The notes under the pieces were generated by a model that was given only the letters and a program-made list of their open reading frames with translations, was not told where the DNA came from and ran no database searches. From assembly GCA_030613005.1 (NCBI GenBank), contig JAUWMV010000004.1, positions 29,211 through 93,210 on the forward strand: a stretch of 64,000 nt of DNA. Reading direction: 5' to 3'. The translations under genes and the position numbers were made by a program. Source of the DNA: a bacterium (GTDB taxonomy: Bacteria > UBP14 > UBA6098 > B30-G16). Below, one piece after another: positions 10,231 through 35,437 of the stretch (its first letter is position 1; each line of letters begins with the position of its first letter).

Positions 10231-13167
10231 TTGTTAAATTCAATATTTATAATTTCGCTTCTAATCGCAGGACAAACAGAAACTGGCAAATTCGAATCTG
10301 CCGATACAATCAATTTAGGTGTTTACGTTGTGCCATCGTCGGTGGAAATTTTGTGTAGAGAGGATATTATCCCTAAAAGCATCTATCAAGTTACAGTAGA
10401 AGGATTTATTACTTTTTTCTCCACAATTGAATGTGATTCATTGACAATTAATTACATTCCAGTTTCAAAACTCATTCCAAAAGTTAGGTCCGAACAGACA
10501 TTATTCGGAACTCAATCTTTTGCCCCAAGAGATCCAACCTTAATGGAATCTGAGGATGCTTACATAAGAACAAGTGGTTATGTAACTCGAGGTTTCAAAA
10601 TCAATGAAGCCAACGATGTAATATCAACTGGGGAACTAAGAATTGAAGCATACGGTCAGCTTCCTATGGGATTTGAAGTTAATGCGGTATTATCGGACGA
10701 AGACCTACCATTTCAACCCGAAGGAACATCACAAGAATTGACCGAATTGGATAAAATAATGATCGAGTTAACCTCACCTAGTTTTTCAGCATCTATGGGA
10801 GATATCGACATCGCAATTAGTGCTGGGGATTTCCTAAATTTTTCACGGAAAATAAAGGGGGCTTCAGCCAAAGCTAACCTTCCTTGGATAAATGGGCAGG
10901 TTTTTGGCTCGATTATTAGCGGTGAATTTACTAAATTTGCATTTTATGCTACCGAAGGGAACCAGGGGCCATATCCTCTACAGGGAAAAACTGGCGAACG
11001 AGATATTGTAATTGTTGCAGGTTCCGAGAATGTATGGCTTAACGGCGAGCAAATTAAACGAGGCACTGAAAACGAATATATTATCGATTACAATCTAGCT
11101 CAAGTAACCTTTAATCCCAACACTCCAGTAGGAGCTGGTGACAGAATTTATGTTGAATATCAATATATTGCCAATGTTTATCAAAGCTCCTTTTATGGAG
11201 GATCTGCCAATATCATTGGTATACAAGACATTACATTAGATGTGGGATTTATAACGCTAGCAGATAATGGAGAGGAACCTATTGGCGAAATAACCGATTC
11301 AATTCAAGCAATACTTGAATCCTCAGGAGATAACTTCCCAGATTCTTTAGTCTCACCACCAATGAAACAATGGTCTCTTGTTTCCGGATTAACAATAAAT
11401 AAGAAAAAAAATTCATTAACTGCAAGCCATTCTATGTCTGGAATAGATAAAAACACTTATTCGTCCTTAGATGATCATGACAATCTTGGGCAGGCTTTTT
11501 CTGCTGCCGGAACGTTAGGTATAACAAACATCGTTAGATTTTTCGCATCTACTCGATATATGGACAGCAAATTCAATTCTTTTCAACCGATTGAAACCGC
11601 TGAAGAAAAAAGAAACTGGGGAGTTTATAACAATGAAAATCAAGAAGATTTAATAACATCGGCAGGAATTAGAATAACTTTTGGAAAATTAATTTCCACA
11701 GTCAATTTAGGTTACAGGAAAACAGGAGATGAAACCTGCCAACGAGAACGACTTAGGTTATTGTTAGACGAGGACGGTTTTGATATTAATGCTGGAATAC
11801 AGAACATTCGTTTTGGAGATGAGCAACGATTAAATAGCGATTTAAAACTTTCTCGCGAAATTGGCGAAATAACGAAGCTTTCCTTTTCCGGGGATATGGA
11901 GTTATTCGAAGGCTCATCTGACTCACTTGTTTACAATTTTAAACCGGAATTAGGAATAAATGTTCTGGATGGCAATCTCGGTTTTTCTTTCCAAATCGAA
12001 GAAAAGCAAGCTCGTCCTGAAAAGAATTTTGAGCGTCTATATTCAATTCTCTCCCCTGGTGTGGGATTTTCGGGACGTTCCTTTTCAGCCAATTGGTATC
12101 GAAGAATGTATAGATCTTATGATACGCTTGCCGGCAGTGATTTAACAACCGACCTTTTCCAAGTTTCAGCATACACAAATATTTTGGGCACAAAAACGAG
12201 TTTTAATTACTCAGTAACCGGCAGTCAAAGCGAAATTATGGAGAAAAAATTCGAGGAGGTTAAAATCGGCACAGGAAATTATAGCTACGATGAAGAACTC
12301 GATGAATATGTTCCGGATCCAAATGGAGATTATATTCTAAAATATGAACCTACAGGAAGTTTTGATCAAGTACTTCGGAGCAATGGAAGACTTACAGTTG
12401 CTGCCGAGAATGAGAAAATTGCTCTCGGTTCAGCTTTTTCAATCACCTCATCTTTTGAAATTGAAAATAAAGATCGAAGCTTCTCTGGGATTTTACCTAT
12501 TCCATCAACGTTTGAGAGCGATTCACTTTGCTATGGCAATCTTTATACAACGATTCAACTCAATACACTCCGCAGAAGTAAGATCAATTTAAATAGTACT
12601 TACCAAAATATACGTATTACACGACGTAATCTCATATCGGGTGATGAAATATATAACGAAAATGAATTCAGGCTAAGTTTGGCAGGAGTAGTCTACCAAA
12701 GCATATTCTCCGAATTATCTGGAATCTATAACATAAAATCTTCAACACGTCCAGGTTTAGAGGATAAGCTTAATTCCCATAACTATTCAACAGAACTTGC
12801 ACTCAGCCGAAAATTCCTTCGATATATGCAAATTGGGAATAACATAATATTGACGGCATCTAAGGGTAAATCAGGTACAACGGATATCGATGCGTTTATA
12901 TTCAGGAATACTTTTGTCTTGCAGTGGCGCTACAAAAAATTTAGAACAAGGTTACGCTCCGAACAGATAAATGTGGATTCAAAGCAAGAAGCCTTACCTT
13001 ATGAAATTTCCGGAGGTTGGCCTAACGGTTTCAATTACAGTTTTTCCTCGAGTATCACATATAAATTCGGCTCAAATATCGATTTGACACTAAGTGGCAG
13101 AGGAACTAAAAAATCGGAAAAAGATTTAGATTATGACATCGAGCTTAGAGCCCGATTTCTATTCTAA
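10231..13167 (+). CDS. large outer-membrane beta-barrel-like protein (C-terminal Phe)
   Basis: 978 aa with a short N-terminal signal (MLNSIFIISLLIAGQ). Long stretches of alternating hydrophobic residues typical of beta strands. C-terminus ...RARFLF ends in an aromatic residue, as outer-membrane beta-barrels do. Confidence 0.5.
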   Translation: MLNSIFIISLLIAGQTETGKFESADTINLGVYVVPSSVEILCREDIIPKSIYQVTVEGFITFFSTIECDSLTINYIPVSKLIPKVRSEQTLFGTQSFAPRDPTLMESEDAYIRTSGYVTRGFKINEANDVISTGELRIEAYGQLPMGFEVNAVLSDEDLPFQPEGTSQELTELDKIMIELTSPSFSASMGDIDIAISAGDFLNFSRKIKGASAKANLPWINGQVFGSIISGEFTKFAFYATEGNQGPYPLQGKTGERDIVIVAGSENVWLNGEQIKRGTENEYIIDYNLAQVTFNPNTPVGAGDRIYVEYQYIANVYQSSFYGGSANIIGIQDITLDVGFITLADNGEEPIGEITDSIQAILESSGDNFPDSLVSPPMKQWSLVSGLTINKKKNSLTASHSMSGIDKNTYSSLDDHDNLGQAFSAAGTLGITNIVRFFASTRYMDSKFNSFQPIETAEEKRNWGVYNNENQEDLITSAGIRITFGKLISTVNLGYRKTGDETCQRERLRLLLDEDGFDINAGIQNIRFGDEQRLNSDLKLSREIGEITKLSFSGDMELFEGSSDSLVYNFKPELGINVLDGNLGFSFQIEEKQARPEKNFERLYSILSPGVGFSGRSFSANWYRRMYRSYDTLAGSDLTTDLFQVSAYTNILGTKTSFNYSVTGSQSEIMEKKFEEVKIGTGNYSYDEELDEYVPDPNGDYILKYEPTGSFDQVLRSNGRLTVAAENEKIALGSAFSITSSFEIENKDRSFSGILPIPSTFESDSLCYGNLYTTIQLNTLRRSKINLNSTYQNIRITRRNLISGDEIYNENEFRLSLAGVVYQSIFSELSGIYNIKSSTRPGLEDKLNSHNYSTELALSRKFLRYMQIGNNIILTASKGKSGTTDIDAFIFRNTFVLQWRYKKFRTRLRSEQINVDSKQEALPYEISGGWPNGFNYSFSSSITYKFGSNIDLTLSGRGTKKSEKDLDYDIELRARFLF

Positions 13168-21650: not shown

Positions 21651-21744
21651 TTTTTCTATCCTTTGATATCTTTAAACAGATGCAAATTTAATTTAATGTA
21701 ATATGCATGTCAATATATTCTATCGAACTATACGGAGGAAGATA

Positions 21745-22626
21745 ATGATGAAATATATAGTTTGTATCGGTTTGTTTTTAATAATGCTTGGAGTATCATT
21801 CGGGCAATATGAAATCTTCTCAAACTCCGGTGAAAAAATCGAAACACTTGAAGCCTTGGTCGATCGATTATCAAAGAATGATGTTGTATTCTTTGGCGAA
21901 ATTCATAACGATATAATTGCTCATGGTTTAGAATTTGAAATATTAAGTCGACTTTCTAGCAGATGGGAAAAAACCGCGCTTTTACTGGAAATGTTCGAGG
22001 CGGATGGTCAAAGATCTCTGAATTCTTTCTTAGAAGGTAAAATATCCGAGGATGAATTTAAACAATCTGTTTCGCTCTGGGGCAACTACAACACCGACTA
22101 CCGAGTTATGGTCGAGTTTGCAAAGTTAAAGAAAATACCTGTAATAGCTGGCAATATTCCGCGTCGATTAGCAAAACTTGTCAGTTCAGATGGAATTTCT
22201 GCGTGGGATAAACTTTCCAATACAGAAAAACAGTATCTTCCAAGAGAAACGTTTTTCAAAAATGATCGATATAGAGAGCTTTTTGAGATGACAATGAAAG
22301 ATAATCCCATGATGAAAAGAATGCCTGATGTATCTATGGATAACTTATATCATGCTCAATGTGTTAAGGATGAAAAGATGGCGGAGTCGATCGTAGATTT
22401 CCTGAAGAAAAATTCAGACTGTAAAGTATTCGTAGTAAATGGTTCCTTTCACAGTGATTATCATCTCGGCACAGTGCAAAAGCTTAAACTTCGAATGCCT
22501 GAATTAAAAATCGTTACGATATCCGCCATACCTGTGGACGATATTTCTGGAATAAATCCTAAAGAATACTCGGAAAAAGCCGATTTTATTATCTTCACTC
22601 AAAAAAATTCTTCAGAAAGCTATTAA
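21745..22626 (+). CDS. ChaN-like family protein (haem-binding lipoprotein family)
   Basis: ATG 6 nt after GGAGG. Signal peptide; VVFFGEIHNDIIAHGLEFEIL and LLEMFEADGQ motifs characteristic of the ChaN/DUF399 family. Confidence 0.55.
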   Translation: MMKYIVCIGLFLIMLGVSFGQYEIFSNSGEKIETLEALVDRLSKNDVVFFGEIHNDIIAHGLEFEILSRLSSRWEKTALLLEMFEADGQRSLNSFLEGKISEDEFKQSVSLWGNYNTDYRVMVEFAKLKKIPVIAGNIPRRLAKLVSSDGISAWDKLSNTEKQYLPRETFFKNDRYRELFEMTMKDNPMMKRMPDVSMDNLYHAQCVKDEKMAESIVDFLKKNSDCKVFVVNGSFHSDYHLGTVQKLKLRMPELKIVTISAIPVDDISGINPKEYSEKADFIIFTQKNSSESY

Positions 22627-22690: not shown

Positions 22691-23551
22691 ATGAATTATT
22701 CTAAAATAATACTTTCACTCATATTATTTGTAAGTTGTTCTTATGGACAATTCGATATTTTCGCGAGTTCCGGAGATAAAATTCCAGATATCGACTCACT
22801 AATTTGTATTGTATCCCAATACGATGTTATCTTTCTCGGTGTTGAAAATTTTGATTCAATAAGCAATGTCCTCGATTATGAAATTTTCGATGCTCTAACA
22901 GAGAAAAACAAGGATATTGCCTTGTCCCTCGAAATACTTGAAGCAGACAATCAAGGGATTGTTAATGATTTTTTAGTTGGAAAAATAAGTGGGCAGGAAT
23001 TACATGTCGCTTCTAATATTGATATAAATATCCTTCAGATTTTCTTACCACTAATCAAACTTGCCAAAAACAAAGGATTACCCGTCATAGCTGCTAATAT
23101 ACCTAAAAGATTTTGCAGGATAGTCTCGCACTTTGGAATAGAGGAGTTAGGTTCATTGTCTGAACAGGAACAAAAAATTCTCCCCCAACAAACATTTTTT
23201 TTTAACGATCAGTATAAAGAACTATTCAAAGAAAGACTCCAAGAACAAAAAACACAGTTAGAAAAACAGGATGAGAACTTTAATAATCTATACCAGTCAC
23301 ATTGTCTTGCAGATGAGAAAATGGCAGAATCGATTTCCAATTTCTTGCTTCAGAATCCAGGATTTAAAGTTTTTATGATAAATAATTCTTTTCACTCTGA
23401 TTACAGACTTGGGATCGTTCAGAAGCTTAATATCCGATCCCCTATGTTGCGAATTGTTACGATAAAAAATTTTCCAGTGCCAAAAATGGCAAAAATCGAT
23501 TATAATCAGTTGCTTGATAAATCGGATTTTCTTATTCTAACTTTCCAATAA
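22691..23551 (+). CDS. ChaN-like family protein (tandem paralog)
   Basis: Same architecture as 21745..22626 (FLGVENFDSISN, LEILEADNQG, HCLADEKMAESI) and clearly related, though divergent. Confidence 0.55.
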   Translation: MNYSKIILSLILFVSCSYGQFDIFASSGDKIPDIDSLICIVSQYDVIFLGVENFDSISNVLDYEIFDALTEKNKDIALSLEILEADNQGIVNDFLVGKISGQELHVASNIDINILQIFLPLIKLAKNKGLPVIAANIPKRFCRIVSHFGIEELGSLSEQEQKILPQQTFFFNDQYKELFKERLQEQKTQLEKQDENFNNLYQSHCLADEKMAESISNFLLQNPGFKVFMINNSFHSDYRLGIVQKLNIRSPMLRIVTIKNFPVPKMAKIDYNQLLDKSDFLILTFQ

Positions 23552-25451: not shown

Positions 25452-25865
25452 TCAACCACGCACTCGTTCAAGTGTTGCATTTATCTTGCCAGACTTGTGC
25501 CTTAATTCTTGTGTTCTAACGTATTCCGAGACTATGTCCATATGAGATTTGCTAACTGATACAACACCATAACCGTTATCCCAAATAGGTGGTGTTTTTA
25601 ATGCCATCTCATCAATCATAAATATAGTCGATTGATGTTTAACAAGCTCTGCAAGAGCTCCAGGCGCAACACCGGGCATCAATTGTGCAAAAAGATGAAT
25701 GTGATCGTTTAAAACCGAGATTGCTACAGGTTTATAGCCAAACTCATCCCCACGACTCGTAAAATAGCCTTGTAAAACTTTTTTCATAGCCGAGTTCATC
25801 TCAGAGGAATCCTCAGCTACCAGCCAAACTATATGACAATATATTTCCGAGAATCCTACTGGCAT
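25452..25865 (-). CDS. tnpA: IS200/IS605-family (Y1, HUH) transposase TnpA-like protein
   Basis: 137 aa. HUH motif in LNDHIHLFAQL and a catalytic Tyr region (VSEYVRTQ). The size and motif order are those of IS200 TnpA. Confidence 0.6.
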   Translation of the reverse strand: MPVGFSEIYCHIVWLVAEDSSEMNSAMKKVLQGYFTSRGDEFGYKPVAISVLNDHIHLFAQLMPGVAPGALAELVKHQSTIFMIDEMALKTPPIWDNGYGVVSVSKSHMDIVSEYVRTQELRHKSGKINATLERVRG

Positions 25866-25995: not shown

Positions 25996-27312
25996 ATGAA
26001 TAAAACAATAATGGAAAAAGCACACGCAGGAATCGAACTTCCAGAATTTACCGAAGTCGCAAAATACGAAAGAGTTTCCATAGATAAAATAATGGAAGGT
26101 GTTGCTGCTGGAACAATTGTTATAACAAAAAACAATGTTCGACCCAGACCTATACGTTCAGTGGGGATAGGTTCAGGTCTCTTGGTAAAAGTAAACGCAA
26201 ATATCGGGACCTCTCAGGACAGTGCGGATATAAAAAATGAATTACAAAAGCTCGAGGCTTTGGTTCAAGCGAAGTCGGACGCAGTTATGGATTTATCTAC
26301 CGGTGGCGATCTCACCGCGATTCGAAAAGCGATAATCGCTAATAGCCCAATCCCTATCGGTACCGTACCGATCTATGAAATTGCTGTTAAACAACGCCTA
26401 ACGGGAACCCCAATGATAAAGCTCTCTGCAAACGATATTTTTAAAGTTATAGAGGAGCAAGCAAAGCAGGGAGTGGACTTTATGACTGTGCATGCGGGAT
26501 TAACAGCGAGAACTGTTGAGATGATCCTTCGTGGTAGTAGAACTATGAATGTTGTCAGCCGAGGTGGAGCATTTCTTTTTCAATGGATTAGATTCAATGA
26601 ATGTGAAAACCCATTATACGAAAACTTCGACAGATTGTTGGAGATTTGCAGAAAATATGAGATAACTCTTTCTCTTGGCGACGGAATGCGTCCGGGTGCT
26701 GTGGTGGATGCAACCGATCAACCGCAAATCGAGGAACTGCTTACGTTAGGTGAATTGGTAGATCGTGCGCGAGAAGCCGGTGTTCAAGCTATGGTCGAGG
26801 GACCGGGTCATGTCCCTATCGATCAAATAGAAACTAATATGAAAATTCAGAAACAAATTTGCAAGGGAGCACCATTTTATATTCTGGGACCAGTAGTAAC
26901 CGATATCGCACCGGGTTACGATCACATAACATCCGCCATCGGTGGAGCATGGGCAGCTTATTTCGGTGCAGATTTCCTATGTTATGTTACTCGAACAGAA
27001 CACCTGTCTTTGCCCAATATAGAAGCTGTACGTGAAGGCGTAATAATAACTCGGATTGCTGCACATGCCGCTGACATAGCAAAAGGACATCCTGGAGCGA
27101 TTAATTGGGATCTTCAAATGAGCAAAGCTCGATTCGATCTTAATTGGGAAAGACAGATTTCATTGGCAATCGATCCCAAACGCGCAAGCTTCATACGCGA
27201 CGCTCTTCCACCGTCGGATGAGGAAGTCTGCACGATGTGTGGCGAATTTTGTGCATTAAAAATGACCAAGGAAGCTCTGCCCAAAAAAACCAGCGAAAAA
27301 CAGGAAATTTAA
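25996..27312 (+). CDS. thiC: phosphomethylpyrimidine synthase
   Basis: 438 aa. GPVVTDIAPGYDHITSAIGGA and the C-terminal CX2CX4C cluster CTMCGEFCALKM. Confidence 0.9.
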   Translation: MNKTIMEKAHAGIELPEFTEVAKYERVSIDKIMEGVAAGTIVITKNNVRPRPIRSVGIGSGLLVKVNANIGTSQDSADIKNELQKLEALVQAKSDAVMDLSTGGDLTAIRKAIIANSPIPIGTVPIYEIAVKQRLTGTPMIKLSANDIFKVIEEQAKQGVDFMTVHAGLTARTVEMILRGSRTMNVVSRGGAFLFQWIRFNECENPLYENFDRLLEICRKYEITLSLGDGMRPGAVVDATDQPQIEELLTLGELVDRAREAGVQAMVEGPGHVPIDQIETNMKIQKQICKGAPFYILGPVVTDIAPGYDHITSAIGGAWAAYFGADFLCYVTRTEHLSLPNIEAVREGVIITRIAAHAADIAKGHPGAINWDLQMSKARFDLNWERQISLAIDPKRASFIRDALPPSDEEVCTMCGEFCALKMTKEALPKKTSEKQEI

Positions 27313-27357: not shown

Positions 27358-28290
27358 CTAAGGTTTAACAATTATAGTCTCACCATCGATAGGAGACGGG
27401 AAAATAATACAGTTTTCATATTTTCCTGTTTCAACGATTGTGTTGGAGAAAACAATACAATTTTCCAAATATATTTCTGGATACAATTTAGCCTTTGAAT
27501 CCACATAAACGAAACCCTTAAGGTACACTGAATCCGGAGTTTTTACATTACTTTCAATAAAAGTTAATTTACCTGCAAGAGGATGCTTAACTACTGAATT
27601 TACTAATATTTCTTGATGTAACTTGAGATAATTTTTTAAATCTCCAAAGTCTAACCAGAACTCATTCTCTTCATATACTCGGACTAAGCCCTTTTCAAAC
27701 CAAGGTTTGAGTGCATCTGTTAGCTCTAAAAAGCCTTTATTAGAAAACGAATCGAGAACATCCGTATTAAAAAAACCAACCCCGGAATAAGTTAATTTCT
27801 TTATCGACGAATTTTTAGATAAGAATTCGGAACCAAAACCTATAACTGTTCCTGCTTTAGTTATAACATTATTTGTGAAATCATTATCAATCGTTATTAG
27901 TGTTACTTTCGCATTCGAATCCTTATGAAATTCATAAGCTTTTAATAAATTAAAGCTTTCTATAATATCGCAATTATGAACAAGCACTGTAGTTTCTGGG
28001 AGGATTTTGCTATACAGATTTCCCAATCCACCAGCTGTGCCCAGAATTTTATTCTCTGTAATACATTTTATCTTAAATTTTGAGGCATAACTTTCGATCT
28101 GAGCATTGTGATAATGTGTGTTTACAGCAATTTGAGTTATACCTGATTCATATAGTCTTTTATAAAGAACTTTCAAAGCTGGTATGCCAACAATAGGTAG
28201 TAAAGCCTTAGGGCAAAAATTTGTAAGCGGTTTGAGCCTTGAACCAAATCCCGCTGCAAGTATAAATGCATGTTTAGGAAACTTTCTCAT
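27358..28290 (-). CDS. sugar-phosphate nucleotidyltransferase with C-terminal left-handed beta-helix
   Basis: FILAAGFGSRLKPLTNFCPKALLPIVG (NTP-transferase G-rich loop). The C-terminal hexapeptide-like region is VYVDSKAKLYPEIYLENCIVFSNTIVETG. The start ATG at 28290 overlaps the upstream stop (ATGA). Confidence 0.6.
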   Translation of the reverse strand: MRKFPKHAFILAAGFGSRLKPLTNFCPKALLPIVGIPALKVLYKRLYESGITQIAVNTHYHNAQIESYASKFKIKCITENKILGTAGGLGNLYSKILPETTVLVHNCDIIESFNLLKAYEFHKDSNAKVTLITIDNDFTNNVITKAGTVIGFGSEFLSKNSSIKKLTYSGVGFFNTDVLDSFSNKGFLELTDALKPWFEKGLVRVYEENEFWLDFGDLKNYLKLHQEILVNSVVKHPLAGKLTFIESNVKTPDSVYLKGFVYVDSKAKLYPEIYLENCIVFSNTIVETGKYENCIIFPSPIDGETIIVKP

Positions 28291-28961
28291 ATAGGATATA
28301 TAATACATGCCGGGACTAAAGACCAAATTGGAATATCGTGAAAATCTTTCAAATCTTTCGCTAACATTAAAAGGTCTAAATAAAAGAAAATTGGCCAAGC
28401 TCCCCTGCCGTTCCCAAAACGCCAAAACCTTTTCTGGGAATAATCTTTCGAAAGTTTGCGTCGTTCTATCATTGAATCGTTCCAGCTTTTTTTATCCCTA
28501 AAATATATCTGAGCGCTTTTCTGAGACCATGCATGAATATCTGTACCAGCATTCACACAGATACTTAAAATACGTTTTAAATTGCGTTTATTCGGTGGTT
28601 CTGTTTTGAAAATGAATTGACTGATTTTACTGAAATTCTCCGAAGCAAGTCTAGAGAGTAATATTATCGGACATGCAAAAGCCGAAGCAAACGCAATTAC
28701 TTCAATAGATTTAGTTTCGATCTCGGTCTTTTCTGATAGACTGCTTATTGTTTCATCAAATTTAGTGAAAGGATAATCTAAATAGCGAATTTTTCCCTGT
28801 TCTTCAAAAGATCCCCATAATGAAGGTGTAATTCCCAATATTCTTTGCTCAAACTGATTTGCTAACCATTCAAGATTTTTCAGTTCTGTTTCCTCACCTA
28901 CACCGTAAATGATAGCACCAATATTCTTTACGAGCGATATGTATTCTGGAGAAATTATCAT
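28287..28961 (-). CDS. hypothetical protein
   Basis: 224-aa ORF sharing 4-nt ATGA overlaps with both flanking genes. No recognisable motif. Confidence 0.45.
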   Translation of the reverse strand: MIISPEYISLVKNIGAIIYGVGEETELKNLEWLANQFEQRILGITPSLWGSFEEQGKIRYLDYPFTKFDETISSLSEKTEIETKSIEVIAFASAFACPIILLSRLASENFSKISQFIFKTEPPNKRNLKRILSICVNAGTDIHAWSQKSAQIYFRDKKSWNDSMIERRKLSKDYSQKRFWRFGNGRGAWPIFFYLDLLMLAKDLKDFHDIPIWSLVPACIIYPI

Positions 28962-30222: not shown

Positions 30223-31161
30223 ATGGACATATTTGAATATTCAAGGCTCTCAATTGAAGAAATTGCAAAAAGAATAGATAAAGCCAAACGCAATCTTGGA
30301 GCCGTTATTATTGCTCACAGCTATCAACGTATAGAAGTACAGCAGATTGCGGATATTGTTGGCGATTCTCTTGAACTTGCACGAGAGGTAGTAAATACCG
30401 ACGCACCTATAATTGTATTCTGTGGTGTAATGTTTATGGCTGAGACAGCCAAAATAATTAATCCCGACAAAGTTGTTTTAATTCCAGAGATTCAGGCAGG
30501 TTGTCCTTTAGCAGCTCATGCTACTGCTGAGGATCTTATAAGAATGAAAGGTAAATATCCTGGTTATAAAGTAGTAACATATATAAATTCTACTGCTGAA
30601 GTTAAATCTGTTTCAGATATTGCATGTACAAGTGCAAATTCTGTCAAGGTTGTAGAATCCTTCCCAAAAGAGCAGGGAATAATTTTCGTGCCAGATAAAA
30701 ATTTATGCGCATATACAAAGAGGATAACTGGTAGAGAAAACATTGTATGTTGGGATGGTCATTGCTACGTTCATGATAGAATTACTGCTCAAGAGATATT
30801 AAATGCAAGAAAAATGCATCCCGATGCAGTGATTATTGCACATCCGGAGGTTAACGCAGAAGTTCAGGAACTGTCGGATCTTATCGGTTCCACGAGCGTG
30901 ATGTATAGATATGTTCGAGATCACCCAAAACAAGCTGTGGTTCTTGTAACCGAATATGGTCTTATTCAACGTATTAACACTGAATTTCCGGGAACATCCG
31001 TGTATCCTATTCATGAGCATGCAATTTGCTCAAATATGAAATTAATAACACTTGAAAAAGTTCTTCGGACACTCGATGAACAAATTTACGAAATTAACAT
31101 ACCAAATGCAATTGCGAACCGAGCCAGAGTTGCAATAGATCGAATGTTAGCTATTAAGTGA
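30223..31161 (+). CDS. nadA: quinolinate synthase
   Basis: VFCGVMFMAETAKIINPDK, ACTSANS and the conserved Cys positions of NadA. 312 aa. Confidence 0.9.
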   Translation: MDIFEYSRLSIEEIAKRIDKAKRNLGAVIIAHSYQRIEVQQIADIVGDSLELAREVVNTDAPIIVFCGVMFMAETAKIINPDKVVLIPEIQAGCPLAAHATAEDLIRMKGKYPGYKVVTYINSTAEVKSVSDIACTSANSVKVVESFPKEQGIIFVPDKNLCAYTKRITGRENIVCWDGHCYVHDRITAQEILNARKMHPDAVIIAHPEVNAEVQELSDLIGSTSVMYRYVRDHPKQAVVLVTEYGLIQRINTEFPGTSVYPIHEHAICSNMKLITLEKVLRTLDEQIYEINIPNAIANRARVAIDRMLAIK

Positions 31162-31215
31162 TATTATTAATCGATTATTATATTTTTTTAATTATAAGTA
31201 ATTGGAGAAAAAAAG

Positions 31216-32526
31216 TTGAAAACTTACAAGGATGTTTCTTACTGTAAATATTGTGGTAGCAAACTCGAGAAACTGAACATTGAAGGACGAGAAAGAGATA
31301 TTTGCGCAAATCCAAATTGCAGTGCAATCTCATATAACAACCCAATTCCTGCAACTGCATTAATTGTACCTCACCCGCGTTTTGCAGAAAAGATACTACT
31401 CGTCAAACGAGCTTGTGAACCCGCAAAGGGGGAATATTGTCTTCCTGGAGGGTTTCAGGAAATCGATGAAACACCAGAACAGTGCGCAATCCGGGAACTT
31501 TGTGAGGAAACATGTCTTAAAGGAGAAGTAATTCTTCCTTTGGGACTAAAAATGCAATTTTCCCCACAATATTTTTGGGTGCTTTTAACCGGATATCAAA
31601 TGAAGATAACCTCAGATAAAATAAAACCTGGGGACGATGCCGAGGAAGCTGGTTTTTTCGATATTAATAATCTTCCTCCCATTGCATTCGAGGGTCACAC
31701 ATGGTTTTTGGAGCGTTATAAAGAGAAATGGGTTGAAACTAAGAAATCAACGATTAATGAAAAGAGTTCACTTCTTATTATGGACATGAAAGATCCTGCA
31801 AAGCGTTATCTTGTACCTATATCGCGCAAAAAGTTCTCCACAAAAGGAGGAACAATCGACCTGATGAGTCTTGTGGGTAGCGAATTTGGAAGAATTATCA
31901 AAACTCATCTTGGTGAAAAACTCTTAATCCTAAAACCAACTCTATACGATAACATAATGTTAGGTGTTAAAAGACAAACACAAATAATCTATCCAAAGGA
32001 TTCACCATACATAGCTCTATGGTTAGGTCTTAGGAATGGCTATAAAGTTTTCGAATGCGGTTCTGGTTCCGGAGCGATGACGATTGTTTTAGCTAATGCA
32101 GTCTCACCAAACGGGAAGGTTGTCTCCTACGAATCGGATGAACGCTTCTACAAATTAGCAAGAAAGAATATTGAAAAAAATGATCTTTCCAGTAGCGTCG
32201 ATTTTTATCTCAAAGACCTATCAGATGGAATAACTCATGGACCATTCGATGCTGGTTTCATCGACATAAAAGAACCCTGTGAACATCTGGAAATCATTTG
32301 GGGTGCATTAAAAGCATCTGCACCTATTGCGTTCGTTCTCCCAACAACAAATCAAATTTCCCAATTGCTTCAATCCCTGAAGGATTTTAATGGATTCACG
32401 GATATACAAGTTTGTGAATTGCTGTTACGATTCTATAAAACGGTGCCACAAAGACTGCGACCTAAAGATCGAATGGTTGCCCATACAGCTTATATGATAT
32501 TTGCACGGAAAATTTTGAAGGATTGA
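31216..32526 (+). CDS. fusion protein: N-terminal zinc-ribbon + Nudix hydrolase (NudC-like) + C-terminal TrmI/Gcd14-like tRNA (adenine-N1)-methyltransferase domain
   Basis: TTG start 8 nt after GGAG. CKYCGSKL...CANPNCS zinc ribbon. Nudix box GGFQEIDETPEQCAIRELCEETCL. C-terminal half has FECGSGSGAMTIVLANAVSPNGKVVSYESDERFYKLARKNIEKN (SAM-binding GxGxG plus the TrmI-type VVSYE/ARKN). Confidence 0.65.
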   Translation: MKTYKDVSYCKYCGSKLEKLNIEGRERDICANPNCSAISYNNPIPATALIVPHPRFAEKILLVKRACEPAKGEYCLPGGFQEIDETPEQCAIRELCEETCLKGEVILPLGLKMQFSPQYFWVLLTGYQMKITSDKIKPGDDAEEAGFFDINNLPPIAFEGHTWFLERYKEKWVETKKSTINEKSSLLIMDMKDPAKRYLVPISRKKFSTKGGTIDLMSLVGSEFGRIIKTHLGEKLLILKPTLYDNIMLGVKRQTQIIYPKDSPYIALWLGLRNGYKVFECGSGSGAMTIVLANAVSPNGKVVSYESDERFYKLARKNIEKNDLSSSVDFYLKDLSDGITHGPFDAGFIDIKEPCEHLEIIWGALKASAPIAFVLPTTNQISQLLQSLKDFNGFTDIQVCELLLRFYKTVPQRLRPKDRMVAHTAYMIFARKILKD

Positions 32527-32527
32527 T

Positions 32528-35437
32528 ATGCCCGGAATTACAGCACACTTTAACTTCGATCCTAAAACAATCAATCCGCAATGCATAACTATCGTACCCT
32601 ATAAATCAGATGAGCAAATAATTCTACAAAGGCTCGATGTTGATATCGCATCTGTAGGATGGAATATAATCACTATTAGAGAATTAATCGAGACTTTCAA
32701 AACCGAAATATTTTGGCCAATAGAGATTAGCGATATTCAATCTTTCGCAATTGCACACAGAATATTTTTAGAAAGCGATTTCCATAAAGAATTAGTCGAT
32801 CTACGAAAAAAGCCATCCTTTCCAAGAAAACTTATGGAATTTTTCCAGACTACTGATCAAGCTGGTATATTGGAGCATTTCGAAATTGATCGTTTATTAT
32901 GTTCAAGCAAACTCGGTCCGAGAACCAAAGAGGCATTAACCTTGTATAAAAAATTCCGAGAGGAATTAAGGAATAACGCCCTTGCCACCTATGATTATCT
33001 CTTCCATCTTGCCTTAAAAGCTGTAAAAAAAGGTCGTTTTCCACAATCGCTAAAATTTAAAGAAATAATCATTTTTTTTAACTTCATGGAATTCAACATT
33101 CCCCAACGAGAATTCGTAATGGAGCTTGGAAAAATTAAAAATGTGTCTCTTTGCTTTCCAATAGAATACTGCGATTATCCTGTTAGATGGCGAGAACCGA
33201 TTAACAACCTTTTGAATGAGTTTGGCATATATGTTAATGAAAACCGGATGAAATCACAAAAAGCTATTACTTTAGTGCTTAACGGTGAATATGAAAATCT
33301 AAAAGACAATATTCAATTTCTCCTTTTACCAGATCCCCAAAGAGAAGTTAGAATAGTTGCCAGATTAGCTAAATACTATACAATTAAAGATAAAATTGAT
33401 ACACAAGATATGTTAATCATAACTCCGGATACAGATGCATATAAATCCTTGTTATCCTTAGAATTAGGATTCGTAGGACTCGACTTTCCTGATCAAGCTT
33501 CTACCCATAATGAAGCAGATTTAGAAAATCTTTTTAGCAAACTTATGACAGCTGTAGCAAGCGATTGGCGTCGAGAAGAACTGATTCAATTATTCAAACA
33601 CCCAATTCTTCAAAAAGCATATCCCGAACTTGAAAGTAAATGGATAGAACAGTATACAGCTTTTAATAAGCTGATTGATATCAAGAGCTGGCAGGAAATA
33701 GAACTGGAAGATGAAAAAGCTATACAAATTCTCGAACTGATTGGAAAATTTGATTTCCTTAAAAACTTGATTCCAGCTAATAAGCTTGAATCGACAATGC
33801 AACACATCAGCAACATTTTGTCAATTCAAATTGGTATAGAATCGCTTCCGCAGTTAAAGGATGAGCTATCAGAGCAATGGTCACGAATTATTAATAACGC
33901 AAAAGAATTAGAAAAAGGTTATTGTAAATTAAAATTCACCGGTCTTGAGTTCCTGGCAATTCAACTTTCACTTCTAAAACGCAAGAAATTCAAGGCTATC
34001 TCAAGCAAAATAAGAATATTACCACCGCTTGAAGCAAGAGGTGTTAATGCCAAAATCATTTTTATTATCGGTTTTAATAGGAGCAATTATCCTCAAAGGC
34101 ACAACCCAAATCCTATTATAGACACAGATTATCGGGACATTTTTTCATTTATTTCCGACAAAGAAGGAATAAGTCGGATATCACTTATTCAATCTATGTG
34201 CCTTGCTGAAAAAGTTATTATTACTATACCTCAAACTAGCGGAGAGGATAATGATCTTGCCCTTTGTCATCCTATCGACGAGATAATGCGGTTCTGCGGC
34301 ATTTCGCTTGAAATGGCACAAAAGAAAGCAATAGAAATTTGGGACGAACTTGAAAATCTTGAAAGAAAAAAAGTATCTTCGACTCTCACACAAATACCGA
34401 ACGAGGACATTGTAAAATTGATTTCACCATATCAAATAGATCAACTTAAAGAAAATATTATTGCCAAAGGCTTGGGAATAGGAGAACTTGAAAAATATCA
34501 TATATGTCCATTATTATTTTTACTAAGCAAGAGTATAGGCAAACCAGAAACTGAAAAAATCACTTTAGAAACAAACTGGAGAATAATAGGAACTGCAATT
34601 CATGATGCATTAAAAGACTTTCTAAGTAAACGATTCATGAAAATCTTCAATGAGGAACCTTTTGGAAAAGGAATTCAATCTCAACGTAACAGATTACACA
34701 CAAGAGAATTAACACCATCTTTGTTGAAACAATTTATCAATAAATTTAAACTTAATAACCGTGAGAATTTCAATTGTTTTGCAGAGCAATTCTTTGGACA
34801 TTATGAAGAATTCGATGAATTAATTAGTGAATTAAGAAAATCTATTTTCTATAATTTTGAATTAATTTGGAAAACTGAGCCTTCTTTGTTGATTAATAAA
34901 GCAAGGTTCCTCTCGATGTTTACTGAAAAACAACTTAATGATATTCTTGAAAGTATTATTAACATTACAGGAGATGATGTTTGGTTGCCCATAGGATTCG
35001 AAGTGCCAATTCAAGAAAGGCGTGAAATCGATGGACATAAAATCCTAATAAAGGGTCGAATCGATAGAGTGGATTTGTCCTTTATAAATGATTTACCTTA
35101 TTTATGCATTATCGACTATAAAAGTTCTGATATTAATTCTGTATATGAATTCCAGCTTAACGCATATGGCACGATGCTATCGAGAGCAGGATTTGAAATT
35201 GATAATCTATCTTGTATATACAACCTTATTAGAGATGAGAAGGTTGGGCAAAAAGAATTTAAGTTTAATTATGAGTCGGCTTTTGATCCGCAAAACAAAC
35301 AAAAAAATATTGATGAAATACTATTCTCAATATGGGACTGCAAGTTCGATCCTTTGGAAAATAGGAATTGTAAAAGCTGTATTTACAAAAAACATTGCTC
35401 ACAGTCTAAATATGATAAATCGAAGCAGTTCGATTAA
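32528..35437 (+). CDS. AddB-like protein: degenerate helicase-like N-terminal region + C-terminal RecB/Cas4-type PD-(D/E)XK nuclease with Fe-S cysteines
   Basis: 969 aa. C-terminal motifs GRIDRVD (II), IIDYKSS (III), QLNAYGTML (QxxxY). One upstream Cys (HICP) plus CX2CX5C (CKSCIYKKHC), as in AddB/Cas4. No Walker A found in the N-terminal part. The start ATG is 1 nt after the upstream stop. Confidence 0.6.
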   Translation: MPGITAHFNFDPKTINPQCITIVPYKSDEQIILQRLDVDIASVGWNIITIRELIETFKTEIFWPIEISDIQSFAIAHRIFLESDFHKELVDLRKKPSFPRKLMEFFQTTDQAGILEHFEIDRLLCSSKLGPRTKEALTLYKKFREELRNNALATYDYLFHLALKAVKKGRFPQSLKFKEIIIFFNFMEFNIPQREFVMELGKIKNVSLCFPIEYCDYPVRWREPINNLLNEFGIYVNENRMKSQKAITLVLNGEYENLKDNIQFLLLPDPQREVRIVARLAKYYTIKDKIDTQDMLIITPDTDAYKSLLSLELGFVGLDFPDQASTHNEADLENLFSKLMTAVASDWRREELIQLFKHPILQKAYPELESKWIEQYTAFNKLIDIKSWQEIELEDEKAIQILELIGKFDFLKNLIPANKLESTMQHISNILSIQIGIESLPQLKDELSEQWSRIINNAKELEKGYCKLKFTGLEFLAIQLSLLKRKKFKAISSKIRILPPLEARGVNAKIIFIIGFNRSNYPQRHNPNPIIDTDYRDIFSFISDKEGISRISLIQSMCLAEKVIITIPQTSGEDNDLALCHPIDEIMRFCGISLEMAQKKAIEIWDELENLERKKVSSTLTQIPNEDIVKLISPYQIDQLKENIIAKGLGIGELEKYHICPLLFLLSKSIGKPETEKITLETNWRIIGTAIHDALKDFLSKRFMKIFNEEPFGKGIQSQRNRLHTRELTPSLLKQFINKFKLNNRENFNCFAEQFFGHYEEFDELISELRKSIFYNFELIWKTEPSLLINKARFLSMFTEKQLNDILESIINITGDDVWLPIGFEVPIQERREIDGHKILIKGRIDRVDLSFINDLPYLCIIDYKSSDINSVYEFQLNAYGTMLSRAGFEIDNLSCIYNLIRDEKVGQKEFKFNYESAFDPQNKQKNIDEILFSIWDCKFDPLENRNCKSCIYKKHCSQSKYDKSKQFD

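Follow-up and report, generated by a model that had tools for sequence, protein, structure and literature searches.

A Nudix–TrmI gene fusion followed by a predicted, highly divergent AddB-type nuclease in an uncultured bacterial lineage

AddB, the second protein of AddAB, consists of an inactivated superfamily 1 (SF1) helicase-like region, a RecB-type nuclease and four ligands of an iron-sulfur (Fe-S) cluster, and it is not known to work apart from AddA (PMC3321194). AddB is the closest described relative of one of the two genes analyzed in this work. The closest described relatives of the other are two enzymes, the tRNA (adenine58-N1)-methyltransferase TrmI/Trm61 and the pyrophosphatase NudC/Nudt12, which acts on NAD(H) and in NAD-cap decapping. 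Both genes were found side by side in a stretch of 64,000 nucleotides (nt) of contig JAUWMV010000004.1 (assembly GCA_030613005.1), hereafter the window. The first (31216-32526, + strand) encodes a Nudix hydrolase fused to TrmI, and the second (32528-35437, + strand) encodes a putative AddB-like nuclease.

The favored reading of this locus, to which a probability of about 0.55 was assigned, is that of a housekeeping operon, inherited vertically in an uncultured lineage that is known solely through metagenome-assembled genomes (MAGs) and metagenome contigs, and not of a defence system. The Nudix part would be a small Zn-ribbon pyrophosphatase that folds like the catalytic half of NudC/Nudt12, and the TrmI part would be an ordinary tRNA N1-methyladenosine-58 (m1A58) methyltransferase. 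The nuclease would be a fast-evolving AddB-type subunit, in which a helicase-like scaffold devoid of Walker A carries a nuclease of the RecB family, predicted to be intact and held together by a 4Fe-4S cluster. Its most likely role would be the processing of double-strand-break ends, together with an AddA/UvrD-type motor that we infer to be encoded elsewhere. The arrangement of trmI and the nuclease would be ancestral and the two genes would be co-transcribed, without this implying a biochemical cooperation of the two proteins.

The fusion gene and its two modules

The fusion gene has a TTG start and encodes 436 amino acids (aa), and the nuclease gene has an ATG start and encodes 969 aa. As the earlier note had described, the stop codon of the former and the start codon of the latter are a single base apart, TGA(32524-32526)-t-ATG(32528-32530). 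The junction (32517-32530, +) also includes a Shine-Dalgarno-like GAAGGA (32517-32522), located 5 nt before the ATG, a distance that comprises the stop codon and that single base. The coupled expression proposed in that note was retained: co-expression of the two open reading frames (ORFs) is likely, and they are probably translationally coupled. The spacing itself is nothing out of the ordinary for the compact genome of the window, where 8 of the 43 same-strand junctions overlap or are at most 3 nt apart. A scan for sigma-70 promoters and terminators was uninformative, with the same counts as in shuffled sequences.

In the fusion protein, Pfam detected Zn_ribbon_Nudix (aa 9-40), NUDIX (aa 58-153; 53.7 bits, cut-off 21.1) and GCD14/TrmI (aa 249-415; 83.9 bits, cut-off 26). 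In the second protein it detected PDDEXK_1 (aa 653-957; 73.1 bits, cut-off 22; 4.3e-20); this protein also had weak matches to AddB and Cas4. Together with the AddB fold, the RecB-type motifs and the four Fe-S cysteines presented in the next section, these domains confirmed the initial identification of a Nudix-TrmI fusion and an AddB-like Fe-S nuclease.

The TrmI module (approximately aa 183-436; 31762-32523, +) comprises an N-terminal beta domain and a Rossmann-type methyltransferase domain. When the Protein Data Bank (PDB) was searched with phmmer, the module matched Thermotoga maritima 1o54 (5.3e-58, aa 188-434), Aquifex aeolicus TrmI 2yvl (2.3e-51) and Thermus thermophilus TrmI 2pwy (3.2e-25), as well as Pyrococcus abyssi 3mb5 and Mycobacterium tuberculosis Rv2118c (1i9g). 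The homology to TrmI/Trm61 (1O54, 2YVL, 2PWY, 1I9G) extends across the full length (aa 186-434), through the beta domain and the class I methyltransferase domain, above the curated thresholds, and the S-adenosylmethionine-binding motif (FECGSGSGAMT) is intact. The closest database relatives are stand-alone TrmI proteins of 251-263 aa from sister lineages (55-62% identity); the identity is about 47-50% to the Aquificae enzymes and 45-62% to bacterial TrmI overall. The module differs from described TrmI in the Nudix module at its N-terminus and in the motif FIDIKEPC (the D-x-x-E/x-P-W site), where the D and the P are kept and a C replaces the conserved W of REPW, present in all five of the aligned TrmI relatives. 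Judged by its sequence, this module is predicted to be an ordinary orthologue of the tRNA m1A58 methyltransferase. A scan of about half of the ORFs in the window revealed no second trmI.

The Nudix module (approximately aa 1-172; 31216-31731, +) contains the Zn-ribbon cysteines C10, C13, C30 and C35 (nt 31243-31320) and the Nudix box GGFQEIDETPEQCAIRELCEETCL (aa 78-101; nt 31447-31518). Compared with the consensus G-x5-E-x7-R-E-U-x-E-E-x-G-U, the box GFQEIDETPEQCAIRELCEETCL has every Glu and Arg position, and its sole deviation is the replacement of the last G by C. The four cysteines and the Glu and Arg residues of the box were invariant in a family alignment of 30 sequences. The module corresponds over its entire length to a widespread family of Zn-ribbon Nudix proteins of 165-180 aa that occur as stand-alone proteins, for which 469 matches were obtained in Marinimicrobia, Zixibacteria, Desulfobacterales and others.

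The AlphaFold2 (AF2) model of the Nudix module had a predicted local distance difference test (pLDDT) of 92.6. Its best fold match was the uncharacterised 3cng; next, aligned along about 175 columns and so nearly the full length, came NudC of Escherichia coli and Nudt12 of mammals. The Zn-binding motif and the Nudix fold of NudC/Nudt12 align over about 175 of the 178 residues, and the profile match of the family covers NudC residues 94-235. Unlike NudC, the module has no N-terminal domain, and the NudC signature that follows the Nudix box can be recognised only in part. The curated NAD(+) diphosphatase model NF001299, whose cut-off is 158 bits, was matched with 33.4 bits and only at model positions 99-242.

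The likeness to NudC extends to the genomic context. A nadA gene followed by the Zn-ribbon Nudix gene was found in three organisms, in the window (30223-31749) and in loci L021 (6005-7549) and L023 (3463-4944), with 61-63% identity of the window nadA to the other two in tblastn. The nadA gene of the window (quinolinate synthase; 30223-31161, +; Pfam NadA, 1.4e-111) is separated from the fusion gene downstream of it by 54 nt. The Nudix gene of L021 adjoins nadA but not trmI, and that of L023 sits between nadA and trmI; away from nadA and trmI, the Nudix gene stands alone. This recurrence and the fold of the NudC/Nudt12 catalytic half suggest a NAD-related 'mini-NudC' family. From the fold shared with NudC and from the link to nadA, a substrate of the NAD(H), ADP-ribose or NAD-cap type is predicted for the module.

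An alignment of the fusion protein shows that a whole Nudix protein and a whole TrmI, each of the stand-alone kind, have been joined end to end through a linker of about 10 residues. The same 436-aa protein was recovered from NCBI, JGI, ENA and Logan in eight members of its cluster, and the related MAG L009 has the identical 1-nt junction and a nuclease that is 92% identical; the fusion is therefore no assembly error. It is restricted to a species cluster at 96% identity. In the unfused relatives L003 and L006 the Nudix and TrmI genes overlap by 4 nt, and in L023 they are joined by TGAaaaATG, a 4-nt gap. Since the two genes overlap or abut in these relatives, the loss of one stop codon would explain the fusion, which most likely represents a recent end-to-end join of the two genes. 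A literature search for a link between TrmI and Nudix proteins found nothing.

The AddB-like nuclease

A word-indexed homologue search with the nuclease returned only the protein itself. In an exhaustive phmmer search of 1.84 billion representatives, seven clusters were obtained at E < 1e-26 besides that of the query (27-32% identity), and below them came remote AddB-looking proteins of 1000-1160 aa, some of which have an N-terminal GxGKT. No match to the PDB was obtained with phmmer; with the family profile, the best sequence match was the nuclease domain of AdnA, including the C-x2-C-x5-C motif. In Foldseek, the top match of the AF2 model (pLDDT 74) was Bacillus subtilis AddB (4cej_B, E 5.2e-20), over about 1100 columns and the whole length. 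Weaker fold matches were RecC and then AdnA, and UvrD-type helicases were also found.

According to these fold matches to AddB, RecC and UvrD, the N-terminal region (approximately aa 1-650; 32528-34477, +) would be an inactivated SF1-helicase-like scaffold. Neither G....GK[ST] nor GK[ST] is present anywhere in the protein. It is followed by the RecB-type PD-(D/E)XK nuclease domain with the Fe-S ligands (34484-35398, +), assigned by Pfam PDDEXK_1 and the invariant residues. The key residues are C660 (nt 34505), D849 (35072), D863-Y-K865 (35114-35122) and Q876..Y880, and the Fe-S motif is C948-x2-C951-x5-C957 (35369-35398). An alignment of four full-length family members, which are 26-30% identical, retained about 110 invariant columns that include the nuclease residues and all four Fe-S cysteines.

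The protein thus resembles the AddB of B. subtilis AddAB (PDB 3U4Q; 4CEJ chain B) in its whole-length fold, with an inactivated SF1-helicase scaffold preceding a RecB-type nuclease, in the D...D-x-K and Q..Y motifs, and in the single N-terminal cysteine that complements C-x2-C-x5-C for a 4Fe-4S cluster (PMC3321194). It differs from it in that it is only about 12% identical and about 190 aa shorter, lacks Walker A and has no neighboring addA in any locus. RecC of RecBCD, the second-best structural match, has no active nuclease or Fe-S cluster, and mycobacterial AdnA of AdnAB, the third, retains the ATPase motifs that are absent here. The modeled fold thus points to a very divergent AddB-family protein, which, because no Walker A is present anywhere, would belong to the type without an ATP-binding motif.

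Gene order in relatives

All of the relatives came from unclassified MAGs or metagenome contigs, with guanine plus cytosine (GC) contents from 35% to 59%. Genes of the type IX secretion system type (PorV, PorP and Por_Secre_tail) were located near their loci, which suggests that the lineage belongs to the Fibrobacteres-Chlorobi-Bacteroidetes (FCB) group.

The TrmI tree showed seven deep sub-lineages at 54-61% identity, and trmI and the nuclease gene are adjacent in five of them, with different flanking genes. In the window and L009 the order is nadA, Nudix-TrmI fusion and nuclease; in L003 it is SIS, Nudix, TrmI and nuclease; in L013, thiC, TrmI and nuclease; and in L008 and L014, as in L016, TrmI is followed by the nuclease, the flanks of L008 and L014 being different. 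The corresponding spacings between trmI and the nuclease gene are +1 nt in the window and L009, -8 in L003, +10 in L013, +73 (or +103) in L008 and L014, and -14 in L016. Spacings of +1, -8, -14, +10 and +73 nt are consistent with co-transcription of the pair.

In other loci the two genes are not adjacent. L005 has a methyltransferase gene, TrmI and then CbiQ on the opposite strand, and L006 has Nudix, TrmI and then GAPDH on the opposite strand. In assembly GCA_021162205.1, thiC and TrmI are on one contig, and the nuclease gene is on another, between a Ser/Thr kinase gene and def. The non-adjacent group of L001 and L005 is nested among the adjacent lineages in the TrmI tree; the pair is therefore ancestral in the clade and was lost at least once. 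The genome of L001 kept the nuclease at another site. Outside the clade, trmI has unrelated neighbors (Persephonella L017 and L018).

The earlier proposal of a two-gene module was only partly upheld by this comparison. The recurrence of trmI and the nuclease in five of the seven lineages, despite changing flanks, supports a pair; the separate contigs of GCA_021162205.1 count against it. The Nudix gene, on the other hand, is missing from the pair in four of the seven lineages and stands beside trmI in only some of them, so it is an accessory and no part of the conserved trmI-nuclease pair.

Residual synteny was detected by tblastn of the window genes against all loci: thiC in L001 and L013, where it directly adjoins trmI (in the window, thiC is at 25996-27312, +), nadA in L021 and L023, and GAPDH and a ClpB/C-type ATPase in L006. 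The region is therefore a slowly rearranging, vertically inherited part of the chromosome.

Additionally, within 2 kb after the nuclease gene, L014 (5246-8992) has a PolyA_pol/CCA-adding-type nucleotidyltransferase gene, on the opposite strand, and PriA. These tRNA- and replication-restart-related neighbors may be a coincidence.

Competing explanations and genomic surroundings

Several observations weigh against a housekeeping operon with an ordinary AddB-type subunit. No AddA/UvrD-like gene was found within 8-10 kb of the nuclease in the window, L003, L007, L008, L013 and L014, so addA does not share the operon. On the basis of these flanks, the standalone character that the earlier note gave to the nuclease is conjectural. 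The curated NCBIfam AddB models remained far under their cut-offs (TIGR02773, 32.9 against 903.7 bits; TIGR02786, 14.3 against 486.5), and the REPW motif of TrmI reads KEPC in the fusion protein (about aa 350-354; window 32240-32290). Moreover, at TrmI identities of 54-61%, no other adjacency in the region has lasted as long as that of trmI and the nuclease, a persistence that may point to selection for co-expression and not to inertia alone. As for an addA that would be encoded elsewhere, Helicobacter pylori presumably has unlinked addA and addB genes; Campylobacter jejuni was also considered as such a case and discarded, as the two genes form an operon there.

Alternatively, TrmI and the AddB-like protein, whether or not the Nudix module takes part, could form a true functional pair that does not depend on AddA, either by physical contact or by working in a shared pathway; the nuclease could, for instance, act on RNA, tRNA or DNA ends in connection with tRNA modification or with NAD-capped or 5'-modified nucleic acids. 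The adjacency in five deep sub-lineages, four of which have overlaps or junctions of at most 10 nt, in spite of reshuffled flanks is in favor of such a pair, as is the consistent absence of an AddA-like gene within 8-10 kb in the loci examined. In addition, three or four lineages have gained a NudC-like module in this operon, in one of them as a fusion. This explanation is nevertheless less likely than the housekeeping reading, though a serious minority view: trmI and the nuclease are on different contigs in GCA_021162205.1, and no nuclease adjoins the trmI of L006 and L005. The TrmI appears to be an ordinary orthologue, with no second copy seen in the part of the window scanned, and the slow rearrangement evidenced by the long-range synteny means that inertia can explain much of the conservation. 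Furthermore, all known Fe-S RecB-family nucleases (AddB, Dna2 and Cas4) act on DNA (PMC3321194, PMC3466216). A more specific version, in which the AddB-like protein would be a lineage-specific, m1A-linked nuclease partner of TrmI without AddA and the NudC-like module would have been recruited repeatedly and here fused, is less probable still. A possible parallel in M. tuberculosis, where TrmI (Rv2118c) is beside Rv2119, was dismissed: the lead was backed by a DNA-repair gene list alone, and the two genes are divergently oriented. We take Rv2119 to be a RecB-family nuclease.

Conversely, the adjacency could be pure phylogenetic inertia and the nuclease a decaying or non-functional remnant of AddB. 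Among the relatives, identity is only 25-31% for the nuclease, against 54-61% for TrmI, and Walker A has been lost, both in favor of a remnant. A remnant, however, would hardly have kept full-length ORFs of about 960-975 aa in every lineage, nuclease and Fe-S ligand residues that are all invariant among the roughly 110 invariant columns, and a predicted fold that is confident over most of the chain. This makes decay a rather remote explanation.

The earlier note had favored the logic of a defence or repair module, and an anti-phage or other mobile module, with a nucleic-acid modifier and an effector nuclease, would agree with the general pairing of methyltransferases and nucleases. In PADLOC, no membership in a defence system was found for the two genes; the only matches were generic: the methyltransferase fold matched part of mad2 (3.1e-18, profile positions 269-396 of 492), and the nuclease domain matched Cas4 weakly. 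The methyltransferase fits a bona fide TrmI far better, over the full length (5.3e-58). The surroundings contradict that logic as well, as no defence genes were found among the neighbors, which belong mostly to cofactor biosynthesis and translation: ChaN-like genes, thiC, a nucleotidyl transferase, a DUF362 Fe-S protein, nadA, a TM198-like membrane protein, YfcE, YraN, lipA, thiL, a thioredoxin-reductase-like protein, thrS and a ClpB/C-type ATPase. Nor was a defence-island context, for which the earlier note had proposed a test, observed: the GC content is even across the locus, with no compositional island, a scan of viral contigs found no relatives, and the residual synteny indicates vertical inheritance across the clade. 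A mobile element does lie 5.4 kb upstream, an IS200-like Y1 transposase gene (25452-25865, -; Pfam Y1_Tnp, 1.7e-15) immediately upstream of thiC, but no other mobile-element gene was seen near the locus. The defence reading was thus largely refuted and is regarded as very improbable, the least probable of all those considered, and the vertically inherited housekeeping operon remains the preferred one.

Other features were recorded in the window. Two tandem ChaN-like haem-binding paralogues (Cofac_haem_bdg) are located at 21703-22626 and 22691-23551 (+). A 224-aa ORF (28287-28961, -) with no family match lies between the nucleotidyl-transferase gene and the DUF362/4Fe-4S gene, and overlaps the latter by 4 nt. 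The large bacterial signal recognition particle RNA (1767-2035, -; RF01854, 119.7 bits) was the only Rfam match. The only other protein above 900 aa is encoded by a 978-aa ORF (10231-13167, +), which was considered as a hidden AddA and set aside, with no Pfam, PADLOC or PDB match.

The component families TrmI, Nudix and AddB are known, and what is new is the Nudix–TrmI architecture, limited to one species cluster, and a tiny, highly divergent clade of AddB-type proteins that lack Walker A and are operon-linked to trmI instead of addA. If the ordinary reading as a housekeeping operon holds, the locus would provide a previously unrecorded Nudix–TrmI domain fusion and a strongly diverged AddB clade that has no Walker A and is limited to bacteria of a little-sampled lineage, and the guess of a defence system would be corrected. 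The persistence of a trmI–addB-like operon without addA hints at one of two things: addA and addB may lie apart in this lineage, or a scaffold of the AddB type may have been re-used together with another partner. The latter, if true, would be of real interest to specialists in recombination and tRNA modification.

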